Of a DNA stretch of 64,000 nucleotides, positions 30,001 through 36,000 are shown piece by piece. Numbering within the stretch: the first letter of the stretch is position 1; each line of letters opens with the position of its first letter. The stretch lies in NCBI RefSeq assembly GCF_053078305.1, contig NZ_CP166879.1. One strand, written 5' to 3'. A program made the position numbers.

Positions 30001-33000
30001 GCCGGCTGATTCAGCCAGTTCCCAGGCCAGACGGAACGCTTCATTCTGCAGATGTTCGATATCATCCCGCCCCACAGCAAAGTGCGTCACCGACGCGGGA
30101 AGAGCATCAGTGGTTCCCGGGGCAGTATTTCCTGTCATAACTGATGCCAGTACTGCTCCGGCAGCACCATCTTCCATAACATCACCACTGAAGACAGGCT
30201 TACCACCGTACATATCCGGCTGTATCTCAGGACGCAGGGCATTTTCAGCAGAAGACGCCCCACTGTCCCCCCTGCCTGCGCTCTCTTCCTGAGAAGGTCG
30301 ACTGCATTTTTCAGTGCGCTCTGTGTCAGCATCAGAAACGGCTTTCAGTGGCCGGGTAATACCATGTTGCTTGCGCTCAGTACCGGGGAATATGGAGACT
30401 GTGCTTTCCGGCATCGCCTCTGTATCCGTATCCGGTTGACACTCCGGTACTTCAGACCGGCTCCCGGATACCGGTGCCCCGGGTTGTACCGTACTGCTGC
30501 CACGGACTGAAGGAGGCACCACCACCGGTTCCGGCTCACCAAAATGATGACGACGGTTTCGCTCTTTCGGATCCAGTTCCAGCAACCACCGGTCATAGTC
30601 CAGGGAGGTATGTGGCAGGGCCTGCAACAAATCTCCGATAAGCTCATCGCGGAACATCTCCAGTGACCACAGTTCCGGCGAATTAAACTTCCGGCAGCTT
30701 TCCCCGAACACGCGGTCAAATTCCGCATCCGTATCGGCTGCAACAGCAAACTGCCCCCATACACGTTCTGCGTCCTGACGAAGTGCGAGGAGTGCTGTAA
30801 CCTGTGGACGCCCCAGTCCTGATTCCATCAGGTCGGGGATCCAGGGGTACAGATACTTCAGGGCATCTTCCATTCTGCTGATTGTGGAGTAATGTATCGG
30901 CAGCCCTTCATGGGTTAACAAATCAGCCAGTTCACGAAGAGACACTGTTCTGCCCAGTTGTTCCTCATGGATTTGTCTTGCCTTGTGGACCCCCTGCGCC
31001 TTCTCAATAAAAGTCAGTTCACCGCGAACTTCATTTTCAGCCAGATGACCAATCACACACTGGAGTCGACCCGGCCAGGGTTTAAACAGCACATGAATAC
31101 GGTAAAAACGCGGATCCCCTGTTTCTTTCCAGAGTTCCGTCAGTATCTGGTAACGGGTGTTTCCCCCGTCACTGAAGATATACACATCCGGCTCACTGTC
31201 CGGCATACGGGTGACTTTGGGCACCGTATCCAGCCCGCGGGCATGAATGGAATTTTTGATATCGTCATAACGCGGATTGCGCGTGGTGCGCGGGTTATCC
31301 GGATTCGGACGTAACTGGTCCAGCGTCAGAACCATGGGCGTTTCCCCCATTGCCACCACATTGCCGGCACCAGTGGTCTGACGACCGGGCTGCATAATAG
31401 CCGCCCCGAGATCCAGTGGTTTATGTGCCATCACGCATATCCTCCCGGCCCGTCATTCTCAGAGGGCGTAAACAGTGTGTAACGACCGTCGAACCTGACC
31501 CGTACCGTACCCGTGGGCCCCTGACGCTGCTTGCTGACAATGATTTCTGCCTCCCCCTTTGCCAGTGAGTCGGGGTTATAGACCTCGTCGCGGTAAATAA
31601 ACATAATCAGGTCAGCATCCTGCTCCAGCGCCCCGGAATCACGCAGGTCACCGTTATTGGGGCGTTTATCAGCACGCTGCTCCACCTGTCGGTTAAGCTG
31701 GGAGAGGGCCAGCACCGGGCAGCCCAGCTCCTTCCCCAGCGCTTTCAGGGAACGGGAAATTTCAGCAATTTCCTGTGTGCGGTTTTCCAGCTCCGGCGCA
31801 CGAATCAGTTGCAGATAATCCACCATAATCAGGGAGGGTTTACCGTACAGACGTGTATAACGACGGGCGCCTGCACGCAGTGATGAAGGCGTCTGCTCAC
31901 AGCAGTCATCAATTATTATGCGCTCACCCAGAGAGCCCATTCCTCCGTCACCAAGCGCCATACCGACCGCAGATGACACCCTCAGCCAGTCCTCATCATC
32001 CATGTTGCCACTGCGCAAATGATTCAGTTCCACACGCCCCAGCATGGAAAGCATGCGCAGAATCAGTTGCCCCTTCGGCATCTCAATGCTGAATACCAGA
32101 ACGCTCTCTTCCGTTCGCCGCAGTGCGGCGCTGAGACACATGGATAACGCCAGAGAGGTTTTCCCCATTGACGGACGGGCAGCCAGCAGAACCAGGTCAC
32201 CAGGCTGCAGGCCACAGGTCATTTCATCCAGACAGTCAAATCCCGTGGGGGTACCGGTAACACCACCGGAGCCGAGCACACTTTCCAGTTGCTGGAGAAC
32301 CGTATCAAGCGCGGATGAAAGAGAGGCTTCCGTGCGCTCCCGGAGCGTCCTGTTCTGCGCAAGCGCAAACAGACGCCGCTCTGCAGCATCCAGCACATCC
32401 CGTGACGTGGCATTTGGTGCCACCACATCAGCAATCAGGGTGTTTCCGGTGGCCTGTAACTGACGCAGAACGCTTTTCTCCACCACAATGCCTGCATAGG
32501 CCATGATGTTGGCCGCAGAAGGTGTGTTCTTGCTGAGCTCGGCCAGATAAGCAAAACCGCCCAGTACGTCCAGCCTGCCCTGATGTTCCAGGTGCTCTGA
32601 CAGTGTAATCAGGTCCAGTGGCTGGCCATTCACCGCCAGTTCAGACATGGCACGGAAAATAGCCCGGTGCTGAGCCACATAAAAATCGTCAGGACTCAGC
32701 ATCAGCACCACTTCATCCCAGCGTTCATTCTCCAGCATCAGCCCACCCAGAACGGCCTGCTCTGCTTCGTATGCACAGAGAACAGACATTTCAGCCATGG
32801 CGCACCCTCCCCCTCTGACAGCCGGAAACCTGGCTACGTGAAAAAAGGAAAAAGGGTGCCGGACGTACAGTTGTCGGGAATAAAATCCCGGTAACTGTCT
32901 GTACGTTTTCAGACCGGTGAGTTTGCCGACCCCGGTCTGAAGGTACGGACAGCATTCGTTCATTCATAACAAGTTGTTTTAAAGGAAAAAGTTTATGAAT

Positions 33001-36000
33001 ACAGAAAAACAACTGCCGTCCGGCATTGAATCTGAGGTGAAATACACCCTGCAGTTCTGGCTGCTGAGTAACGGAAAGGTCATGACGGAAAAAGACGGGC
33101 TCTGTAACCCCTTTCCCCCGAACTGTATTGAATCGGCTCATCCTTTTACTCCGTTTCAGCAGAATCAGTGGATTGAACTGGACACTGTCGGGTCGGATGG
33201 ACCGGTGAAAGCGACGTTTCTTGTGCACAGCGTTCTGTATAAACTGAAACGTCAGGGTGGCTCCCTGAATGATGGCAACTGGCCTGAATACGGCCGGTGC
33301 ATTGCTCACTGGCACACTGACGTGTTTGTTGAGAAAAAAGCGCTGCCTGACTGGCTGAGAGCATTCCACACTGACGTTTCGCACTCGTAAAAACACGTTC
33401 AGCCCGACGGGTCATATTTTCCAGCCACCCGTCGGGGAAAATGTCAGCACCATCACGGGGAAACAAAATCGCTTTCCATTCAGGGTATGAGCGCGGAATA
33501 CCTCCGGAAGCATTCCGGCTCAGACAGCGACTCACAGTGCAGGCAGCACGGAATGCATATGTTGCGATGCTCTCATCATATGTTGCGATGTTCTCATTAT
33601 TGCCTTTCTGCCGTTCCACCCGCTCTTCAGCATCAAATGCCAGTGCAGCAAGGCTTGCCCAGCACATGCAGTTCACTGAATTCCCCGGAACGCTCTGCAG
33701 CTCCCGGCGCACCATGTTGACCTCAGCACTGAAAAAAGCGTTCTCATCGCCTTCAAGGGCAGCCAGATGCAGCGGAAGCCAGACCTGACTGAACCATTCG
33801 CACATCCGTTCCCGGTTACTGACGGTCATCACTGTCTCCGGGCGGGAACCGTCCTGAAAAACATGTCCGGTGCGTGGAGAACTGTATGAAACATAACCAC
33901 CGTGCACCGCAATGACCGGACGACCTGACGCCGGAAGCCCCACACGACACCCACTGGCAATCCGGGTCATCAGCAGGTTCAGTTCAGCCAGTAATTCAGG
34001 GCGGGTTAAGACCGCCGGAAGCGGAGAATATTTCACTGAGGAAGACATACTTTCACCTCCATATCTCTCAGCCCGCCAGGTGCGTCACTTCCCCGCAGAT
34101 ATACCGCCCCCTCCGTCTTTCGCTGTTTGCAGGAAAGACCACATGAAAAAAGCTGGTCATGCCGCTGACGACGCTGGCGTTCCTGCAAAAGAAAGGAGTC
34201 ACAACCGGAACACAGCCCCAGACCACTCTCAGGATTCACCTTCACCCAGACCGGAGCATTCTTACCGGCACCATCCCGTACCCCGGAATAACCACAGCCC
34301 ACGCACACCGTCCACTTCTGCAGTACGATGAGTGCAGTTTCGAGTGATGCGCGGAGACGCCGGGAGGCAATAAGGAGCAACGGCTCATGGTCATAAAAAA
34401 CCCCGCCGTTACCCCCTCCGGATTCAAGCAGCGGGAGTCCTGCAGGCTCCCGGGGAGCTGTTGACATTTCCCGTAATTCGTTTTCATTCCACATATTGTG
34501 GAAAGTTATCCGGTTCACTGAACAACGCCATTCCTCCGCCAGACGCTGATACAAATGCTTTTTCGCTTCTGCGCGGTCAGATGCATCAACAAACACATGC
34601 ACTTCCTCGTGTCCGGGTGCTGAAGCCACGGCACGCCATATCAGTTTTCTGCCCACAGGCTTTTCCCTCCGTTTTCCAGCAGAGCATCAAAAAACTCACG
34701 CCACTCCGGCAACAGTTCACAGGCCAGACTGTGCATGGTGACCAGCGCAGAATCGCTGCAACGGGCAGACACTTTTTCCAGACGATGCACCGGCTGACCG
34801 GCTGCGTGCCCCTGTTTATAAATATTCAGGTCGTAAATCTGTGTTGAAAGAAGGGTGACCGCACCTTCAGGCAGCACTTTGCTGTAGCGACCGGCGTTGA
34901 TAATGCCTGTCAGCTCTGCCAGTGTCTGTCTGGCCAGCGCCGTATAATCCATGCAGTTAACCAGGGTGCGGACTTTCGGCAGGGGAATACCCAGTTCACG
35001 GTAGGGCATAAGGTTTTCCATGACATTGACCGTGCCGCGGATGAACTCACGCACATCCGGCAGAACCGGATTCACCATCCCCACCACAGACTCCGTGGCG
35101 GACAGCACAATCATTTCCAGCATGACAGAACGTGCGCCCTGTGAATCCACCACAATGACGTCATAGGTCTGAAAAAGCGGATGCTGAAGCACATTACGCA
35201 GACGAAGGCGACCATCCGGCGCATGAAGCATGGCCGTTTTCAGTTGCTCATGGGGGTCGTTGGAGACGATGAGGTCAAGCCCCCTGACAGCCGTACGGGA
35301 AATGATGTTGTCAGGATGACTGAGGTCAGCCGTGCGCATCAGTAATTCAAAAAGACCGGCCGGCGCTTCATACGTCAGCGGAAAGATATTGCTTGCCGTG
35401 GGCTGTGCATGGTCTCCGTCTATCAGCAGAGTACGGAGGCCGGCATCTGCCAGAAAACCGGCAAGATTAGCAGACTGGGTTGATTTTCCTTCGCCACCTT
35501 TAGTGGATATAACCGGTAAAATTTTCATATAGCACACTCTTTAAAGTATGCAACCAATCACTTACACTACGGAAACCAGCCAGAATATTCACTTCACTAC
35601 CTGAATACTCGCAACACGGGGATCTAAAATCCCCGTGTCCTTGGTTCGATTCCGAGTCCGGGCACCAAATTCATATCAACGGACCTCCACGGAGGTCCGT
35701 TTTTCGTTTCAGAACGCCACAATTTAAGCGTTCTGCCTCCAAATCAATTCTACCGAACTCAACCAGATTCCCCCCACATCAACCCCATTGTGTGGGTATA
35801 ATTGCGGGTATACCCCAGTTCGACAGAATTTGTACCCTCTTTAACGCATTCAGAAGGCTGAACTATGGCACTGACTGACGCAAAAATCCGGGCTGCAAAG
35901 CCCACTGACAAGACTTATAAACTCACTGACGGGGCCGGCATGTTCCTGCTGGTTCATCCTAATGGTTCCCGTTACTGGCGTCTCCGTTATCGTATTCTGG

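Follow-up and report, generated by a model that had tools for sequence, protein, structure and literature searches.

Shadow open reading frames (ORFs) are long spurious frames on the strand opposite real genes, above all in the in-register frame. Translationally coupled operons are characterized by stop/start overlaps such as ATGA and by a Shine-Dalgarno (SD) sequence inside the upstream ORF, and translation protects their messages from Rho-dependent polarity. Antisense embedded gene pairs have been described in Escherichia coli O157:H7 (ano/ECs2385; PMC5960689) and in EDL933 (three pairs; PMC9927249), long antisense pairs in Pseudomonas aeruginosa (PMC8850804), and further antisense pairs are known (PMC7457138). 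Here we analyse a locus within 64,000 nucleotides (nt) of contig NZ_CP166879.1 (assembly GCF_053078305.1), a stretch referred to below as the window. At this locus a plus-strand ORF of 131 amino acids (aa), ORF131, overlaps the end of a minus-strand ORF of 300 aa, orf300, and both lie between parA and dnaB in the parA-...-dnaB-parB module of an SPI-7-type E. coli island. Substitution patterns indicate that ORF131 is a genuine gene, that orf300 consists of a conserved core followed by a tail without amino-acid constraint, and that this tail, together with a bridging ORF (orfB) that runs on to dnaB, may stay open because translation itself, and not the product, is under selection.

As in the known antisense pairs, two long ORFs occupy opposite strands of the same DNA and annotation pipelines keep one of them. 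Those pairs have mainly been tested by frame-specific substitution patterns and ribosome profiling, and the frame-specific substitution approach was used here. Unlike those pairs, in which an old conserved 'mother' gene carries a young and weakly constrained embedded ORF, the embedded ORF131 is conserved and is covered by frames that lack amino-acid constraint, and the selection suspected on the other strand acts on translation itself, not on a second protein. Like coupled operons, the locus has five junctions from parA to parB with an internal SD and either an overlap of 4-16 nt or a gap of 4 nt, and a compact relative in Erwinia shows a plain ATGA. Unlike coupled operons, its chain of ORFs crosses ~600 nt held by an opposite-strand gene, by way of two ORFs of unconstrained sequence, and the antisense gene specifies one of the junctions through synonymous sites in its conserved motif. 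The tail and a 201-aa ORF in the in-register frame opposite ORF131 show the substitution pattern of ORF131 shadows; unlike ordinary shadow ORFs, the minus-strand frames have both their starts and their ends at SD-bearing operon junctions, and no lineage or structural variant has lost them. The presence of an SPI-7-type DnaB, ParA, ParB and a P4-type integrase is shared with the SPI-7 and pKLC102-PAGI-2 elements (ICEEc2-like E. coli islands), from which the locus differs in that orf300 and ORF131 belong to no curated family and that the parA-dnaB interval is highly variable.

A preliminary description of this locus had reported the two ORFs, their shared 245 nt (33146..33390) and a good ribosome-binding site for ORF131, and all of these were confirmed (Table 1). 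Within the overlap, position 3 of ORF131 codons lies opposite position 2 of orf300 codons and position 2 of ORF131 lies opposite position 3 of orf300, so a clean frame-specific substitution test is possible. Word-indexed and exhaustive protein searches showed that the ORF131 family is tiny, consisting of E. coli proteins at 92-100% identity, P0024 at 58% and P0025 at 40%; further homologues were found antisense beside homologues of the orf300 backbone protein in loci L005 (59%), L031 and L033. The comparison covered four deep lineages from the protein searches and two found beside backbone homologues. The ratio of nonsynonymous to synonymous substitution rates (dN/dS) of ORF131 was 0.26-0.35 in all deep pairs, with differences ordered position 3 > 1 > 2; it was 0.18 for the close pair L013/L021 and 0.36 within the overlap. 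An AAGGA or AAGGAG sequence was present 7-9 nt ahead of the ATG in all lineages, and the motifs YT.F, ES.HPF, W.E, EY and WHTDV were invariant. An AlphaFold2 model built from a 7-sequence alignment was beta-rich (pLDDT 73, pTM 0.67). By its substitution pattern, ORF131 is a genuine protein-coding gene under purifying selection, with its own SD and divergent from dnaB.

Neither ORF131 nor orf300 matched Pfam, NCBIfam, PHROGs, PADLOC or PDB sequence profiles. Genome contig scans with either ORF131 or a core profile as the query yielded no additional ORF131 lineages, and tblastn searches of plasmids and phages for more lineages returned zero. A viral contig scan gave one E. coli-like contig, a metagenome scan gave mostly E. 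coli-like loci, and querying E. coli genomes with the L005 version retrieved window-type islands only.

The minus-strand partner behaves as two segments. Homologues of orf300 align well to approximately residue 226 (...RRAERVFT(S/C)A(K/H/R)R(Q/R)), and comparison of this core with L005 gave a dN/dS of 0.345, with 72/57/103 differences at the three codon positions. The core is preceded by an SD (GGAGGT) 7 nt ahead of its ATG, and its start overlaps the stop of the upstream orf207 by 16 nt. For the tail, the same comparison gave a dN/dS of 1.23 (24/34/19), the other alignable pairs gave 1.07-1.8 with position 2 the most variable, and the close pair L013 and L021 gave 5.6 (3/13/2). Among ten close E. 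coli-type sequences, position 3 of the tail was variable at 4 sites in the overlap and position 2 at 9, whereas the orf300 core of the same ten sequences showed the normal bias (17 at position 3, 10 at position 2). Because the tail varies most at position 2, its ~42-44% identity between the window and L005, at ~50% overall divergence, is best read as a shadow of ORF131. These comparisons indicate that orf300 encodes a conserved protein of ~226 residues whose last 74 codons are without amino-acid constraint. We hold the coding assignments, a real ORF131 opposite an orf300 made of a core and an unselected tail, with high confidence.

The preliminary description had noted that the overlapped tail is rich in Ser, Cys and Gln, and the last 74 residues (after ...AKRQ) indeed contain 12 Ser, 9 Gln and 6 Cys (27/74). 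It had offered a choice, namely that a cargo gene was inserted and the backbone gene lost its native stop, or that one of the two ORFs is not real. Part of this stands: the tail is not a selected protein (dN/dS at least 1.07), ORF131 is real (0.26-0.35) and ORF131-free relatives have a 231-aa protein. The second option does not, since both ORFs have real parts (ORF131 and the 226-codon core). The frame-by-frame comparison of synonymous sites that it had proposed gave a coding-type pattern in ORF131 and the core and not in the tail. It had also proposed a comparison of homologue lengths; homologues at ~50% identity keep 293/295 aa and an alignable tail, but this does not speak against its reading, since they also carry ORF131 on their other strand, which accounts for the conservation of length and tail. 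Finally, the 300-aa protein, which had been called PFL_4669-like, had no NCBIfam or Pfam match at E ≤ 0.1, and PFL_4669 of PFGI-1 adjoins a putative oriV rather than lying between parA and dnaB (PMC2647930). The preliminary description mentioned neither the 201-aa ORF nor the conserved junction, described next, at which the tail stop leads into a bridge towards dnaB.

On the minus strand, the ORFs from parA to parB adjoin one another through overlaps of 16 nt (parA/orf207), 16 nt (orf207/orf300), 8 nt (orfB/dnaB) and 4 nt (dnaB/parB) and a single gap of 4 nt (orf300/orfB), and at all five junctions a GGAG or GGAGG SD lies 7-8 nt upstream, inside the upstream ORF. The bridge in this series, orfB, spans the antisense of ORF131 codons 1-49, the ORF131 5′ leader and a structured element described below. 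The 201-aa ORF that contains it had a dN/dS of 0.7-1.1 against L005.

The junction between orf300 and orfB (GGAG-TAA-AAGG-ATG) is the reverse complement of ORF131 His49-Pro-Phe-Thr52-Pro, the best-conserved motif of the family. The succession of Phe and Thr in ORF131 forces a stop in the tail frame, while the choice of CAT for His creates the orfB ATG and that of ACT for Thr, followed by Pro (CCN), creates the GGAG. Across lineages the His codon was CAT in 6/6, the Thr codon ACT in 5/5 and the following Leu codon, which extends the SD to GAGGAG, CTT in 4/4; elsewhere in the family these are minority codons, making up 31%, 27% and 16% of their sets, respectively. Of the 26 conserved columns with at least four-fold degeneracy, only Thr52 used a single codon, and the other Thr columns used 2-4. 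Five lineages keep the stop/SD/ATG arrangement, at positions where ORF131 could change without altering its protein. The gene finder of the sequence collection independently called orfB-like ORFs in L005, L031, L032 and L033, each beginning 4-5 nt past the backbone stop, and the full orf300 length (277-300 aa) was kept in all ORF131-bearing lineages.

Structural variants show the same ending. The backbone-strand frame that stops 8 nt into dnaB was open for 111-303 codons in 12/12 enterobacterial variants checked. In L028, the interval between the parA stop (ATGA) and dnaB is spanned exactly by an ORF of 113 aa, and in L026 a bridge ORF begins on the stop of an 86-aa gene, behind GGAGGTGG. The route to the dnaB junction was also kept by the deletion variants in Salmonella, P0008, the 165-nt deletion (L022-25), L026 and L028, and by all frameshift alleles.

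From these comparisons we lean towards the view that the tail and orfB are kept open and translated, with selection acting on translation itself and not on the peptides. According to this model, the tail would be translated up to the stop imposed by the conserved Phe-Thr codons of ORF131. The GGAG immediately 5′ of that stop and the ATG 4 nt after it would then permit reinitiation on orfB, which would carry ribosomes over the rest of ORF131 and the structured element before stopping 8 nt inside dnaB. Ribosomes would in this way be handed on without a gap from parA through orf207, orf300, orfB and dnaB to parB, and the benefit would be translational coupling of DnaB synthesis and/or the shielding of ~600 nt of operon mRNA from Rho-dependent polarity. 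If correct, the locus would be a compact natural case of frames kept open for the act of translation and not for their products, with a coupling signal written in the synonymous sites of an opposite-strand gene. It would bear on how operons tolerate antisense-embedded genes and on how far 'shadow' ORFs can be dismissed.

Programmed frameshifting, by which ribosomes would pass from the tail to the in-register frame, was considered and rejected: the T6 run at the site of the P0011 allele does not resemble any slippery motif described, and the locus offers an ordinary SD/ATG site for reinitiation.

The codons TTA, CTA and TCA, which in ORF131 would be stops in the in-register minus frame, are almost never used by ORF131 and its homologues (1 observed against ~12 expected in six lineages). 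Serine illustrates the difference, with 16 TCG and 0 TCA in the ORF131 family against 2 TCG and 21 TCA in the backbone genes of the window. In the N-terminal half of ORF131, which orfB requires to be open, 0 of these codons were observed against 5.3 expected.

Several considerations weigh against the translation model. The C-terminal half of ORF131 avoids TTA, CTA and TCA as well (1 observed, 6.6 expected); this depletion is not required by the chain, so part of the openness of the frame may be ORF131's own codon habit. The fixation of the junction codons has a naive joint P of 5e-8, but the six lineages share ancestry, and a star tree at the observed dS gives P ~0.003 instead; an empirical estimate from column counts gives ~5e-4. 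The probability of a tail frame uninterrupted up to the obligatory stop was obtained by synonymous resampling given each amino-acid sequence and local codon usage, and was 0.19 for the window, 0.30 for L005, 0.40 for the L013 group, 0.12 for L033 and 0.22 for L014. The obligatory stop was reached in every lineage and the product of these values is 6e-4, but Fisher combination gives P ~0.14-0.25, and the two lineages found after the idea arose give ~0.09. An open tail in the window sequence alone is thus not beyond chance, whereas the recurrence of the arrangement in every diverged lineage that bears ORF131 is; as evidence of selection, the recurrence of the open tail is suggestive only. Moreover, there are six lineages in all and they are related, dnaB has a good SD of its own so that coupling may be unneeded, the structured element could hold a dnaB promoter that makes upstream translation irrelevant, and the translation of the tail and orfB is itself read from sequence alone.

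These points would fit a simpler explanation in which ORF131 and the 226-codon core are the sole functional coding units, ribosomes on the backbone gene continue to whichever stop comes first, and the open tail, the 201-aa frame and the stop/SD/ATG junction are accidental results of the sequence and codon usage of ORF131, without effect on dnaB. We regard this as possible, though less probable than the translation model. It accommodates the lack of amino-acid constraint on tail and bridge, the per-lineage chances of an open tail (0.12-0.40, which are not small), the avoidance of the three codons in both halves of ORF131, which points to a general codon habit, the SD that dnaB itself has, and the small number of related lineages. 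It does not readily account for the fixation of the minor codons CAT, ACT and CTT exactly where the other strand gains an ATG and a GGAG, against mixed codon use in the remaining Thr, His and Leu columns, for the retention of an ORF route ending at the dnaB start in every structural variant, several independent deletions included, or for the single SD-plus-overlap style common to all five junctions. Viewed as a test of shadow ORFs, the minus frames lack amino-acid constraint, yet the stop/SD/ATG junction is constrained as nucleotide sequence and open frames are seen repeatedly.

Two other explanations assign protein function to the minus strand. If the 74-residue tail were a functional C-terminal extension, the 245 nt would encode two selected proteins, and the conserved length of orf300 and the alignability of the tail at ~42% identity would follow naturally. 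However, purifying selection was evident in one overlap frame (ORF131, 0.36) and not in the other (1.07-1.8), the tail varies most at its position 2, which is position 3 of ORF131, and many natural alleles lose or replace the tail; nor is a second constraint clear in the synonymous rate, since ORF131 dS within the overlap (0.89) is near that of the orf300 core (1.14). True dual coding is therefore very unlikely. Still more improbable is the reverse assignment, in which ORF131 is the shadow of real minus-strand frames such as an ancestral ~418-aa protein running from orf300 to dnaB. Both PGAP and the metagenome gene caller pick minus-strand ORFs when these are intact, frameshift alleles of 417-418 aa occur, and the in-register minus frame is open throughout, but the coding substitution pattern is confined to the ORF131 frame (dN/dS ~0.3 against 0.7-1.8 for both minus frames), the SD and ATG of ORF131 are conserved, its aromatic and His motifs persist down to 40% identity, and a confident beta core is predicted.

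An extension of the translation model, which we consider rather unlikely, is that of a convergent switch. Transcription and translation of ORF131 on the plus strand would exclude, over a shared 400 bp, ribosome passage across the tail and orfB on the minus strand, and vice versa, such that ORF131 would throttle DnaB-PI synthesis and the reverse, with the structured element between ORF131 and dnaB as the control point; this would decide, cell by cell, if the island replicates or segregates autonomously. Were it so, the bridge ORFs would exemplify frames on which selection acts solely through their translation.

The structured element consists of two hairpins inside orfB, upstream of dnaB. It lies in a block (~32800..33030) that is conserved in 138 E. 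coli genomes, most of them without ORF131. Eight pairs showed compensatory changes, compared with 3.3 in shuffled controls (0/500 shuffles reached 8), and controls in which the partner was slid along the sequence gave 30-48% pairing. The minimum free energy was -40.3 kcal/mol (z = -3.5), and the many G-U pairs in the minus orientation favour an RNA of dnaB sense. The possibility that the element codes for a conserved peptide was rejected, because its variation over codon positions (15/13/19) is not coding-like and 8 base pairs covary. No Rfam family matched the element, and Rfam covariance models gave 0 matches at E ≤ 1 in 32600..34200. A search of 32700..34100 found no sigma-70 promoter consensus and no more terminator-like matches than in shuffles. 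The element may be a new operator or cis-regulatory RNA controlling dnaB-PI. In its longest form the dnaB ORF begins at 32963 (510 aa), and the PGAP start is at 32798 (455 aa); the NF040583 alignment begins at residue 63 of the maximal ORF. The 55 extra codons, which coincide in part with the hairpins, probably do not form part of the DnaB protein.

Relatives lacking ORF131 bear on the history of the overlap. In Erwinia papayae and a metagenomic relative, the backbone protein has 231 aa and its stop overlaps the dnaB start by 4 nt (ATGA); both loci are without ORF131 and without orfB. In a small, midpoint-rooted neighbour-joining tree of the core, this ORF131-free pair (Erwinia and L012) was sister to the ORF131-bearing L033, and that clade was sister to the ORF131-bearing L031 and L021. 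A single loss explains this with fewer events than repeated gains would, and ORF131 therefore looks ancestral to the known family and lost in Erwinia. We infer that ORF131 is an old resident rather than a recent insertion, and the inserted cargo gene of the preliminary description is at odds with the nesting of ORF131-free Erwinia inside ORF131-bearing lineages.

Within closer relatives, the region has been altered repeatedly. In Salmonella the backbone protein has 241 aa, and the locus matches the window at 99% identity as far as 33348 before jumping to the dnaB start; only the last 14 ORF131 codons are kept, and this form is a deletion derivative. E. coli L022-25 has an in-frame 165-nt deletion that shortens the backbone protein to 238 aa and ORF131 to a remnant of 77 aa, a deletion fusion of 338 aa occurs as a further E. 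coli allele, and 1-nt frameshift alleles of 417-418 aa continue in the in-register frame. The overlap alleles (33146-33396) P0008, P0009, P0011, P0012, P0016, P0019, P0003 and P0005 carry 1-nt frameshifts or deletions, one of them at a T6/A6 run near 33330. The alleles of 338-418 aa break ORF131, fuse orf300 to the in-register frame and end at the dnaB junction. Alleles that break ORF131 may represent either real pseudogenization or homopolymer sequencing errors.

The slot occupied by ORF131, downstream of the hairpin element, holds different plus-strand genes in other E. coli islands, of 143 aa in L029 (1635-2066, annotated by PGAP as WP_001095747) and ~158 aa in L027 (2658-3134). These share with ORF131 only the SD and the first 12 codons, MNT..QLPS.ID (window 32995-33030), and in L028 (1635-1829) and L026 (near 2700) the slot is reduced to this 12-codon stub. 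At 29% identity, dN/dS between the L027 and L029 slot genes is uninformative. In L027, the PGAP annotation is of an antisense ORF of 170 aa, probably a shadow or a bridge, so that the annotation of this sister island shows an antisense shadow in place of the likely real gene. The RefSeq/PGAP records of E. coli that were inspected lack an ORF131 feature; in 4 of them the 903-nt minus-strand ORF is a 'hypothetical protein' and the plus strand is blank. These records therefore present a 300-aa protein with an unselected last quarter and omit a conserved 131-aa gene and the bridge ORF.

Table 1. Features of the ORF131 locus and its flanks, numbered from the first letter of the window
Feature	Coordinates	Strand	Remarks
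ORF131 (131 aa, ATG)	32995..33390	+	Conserved family, frame-specific substitution pattern, conserved SD
ORF131 Shine-Dalgarno AAGGA	32982..32986	+	8 nt ahead of ATG
orf300 (300 aa, ATG)	33146..34048	-	From ORF listing
orf300 core, codons 1-226, ending ...RRAERVFTSAKRQ	33371..34048	-	From alignments and dN/dS
orf300 tail, 74 codons + TAA	33146..33370	-	Antisense of ORF131 codons 52-131; no amino-acid constraint
Putative coupling junction GGAG-TAA-AAGG-ATG	33139..33152	-	SD 33152..33149, orf300 stop 33148..33146, orfB ATG 33141..33139
orfB, 116-aa bridge ORF	32791..33141	-	Starts 4 nt past orf300 stop, ends 8 nt inside dnaB
201-aa ORF	32791..33396	-	In-register antisense of ORF131; stop 8 nt within dnaB; orfB forms its last 116 codons
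Two-hairpin element	32867..32952	-	Inside orfB, upstream of dnaB; 93% of cells paired
dnaB-PI, SPI-7-type island replicative helicase	31431..32798	-	PGAP start; family model agrees
parB	29698..31434	-	PGAP 'ParB family protein' in loci 98% identical to the window
orf207 (207 aa)	34033..34656	-	SD GGAGGG; 16-nt overlaps at both ends; variable between islands
parA	34641..35537	-	First in proposed coupled chain; PGAP 'ParA family protein' in near-identical loci
P4-type integrase gene	35865..37127	+	PGAP 'tyrosine-type recombinase/integrase' in loci 98% identical to the window

The wider locus is 94-99% identical to chromosomal islands of 79 complete E. coli genomes. Its DnaB scored 680.9 bits on NCBIfam NF040583 ('SPI-7-type island replicative DNA helicase'), above the curated cut-off of 655, and is flanked by ParA, ParB and a tyrosine integrase at the island end; PGAP gives the name dnaB-PI to the same gene in near-identical E. 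coli loci. The interval from parA to dnaB is highly variable between islands. PGAP annotates orf207 in L001, and different genes occupy its position in the other islands inspected. The stretch from parA to orf300 or dnaB forms a second variable slot (window 34033-34656; also L002-L004, L026 and L027), which holds, depending on the island, the 207-aa ORF, its 86-aa C-terminal version, or unrelated genes of 107/86 aa, 179/165/86 aa or 164 aa. Wherever junctions were inspected, neighbours in this slot had start-to-stop overlaps.

Two repeats were observed within the orf300 core. A perfect 9-bp inverted repeat, CCCGACGGG...CCCGTCGGG (33403-33436), begins 13 nt past the ORF131 stop, in the codons for PDGW...TRRA; it has no U-run and is therefore not a canonical terminator, and its stem is kept in L005 by paired G>A and C>T changes. 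At 33566-33607, on the minus coding strand, 21 bp are duplicated in tandem (catatgttgcgatgctctcat / catatgttgcgatgttctcat), so that the heptapeptide (E/D)(N/S)IATY is encoded twice; allele P0013 has one copy fewer.

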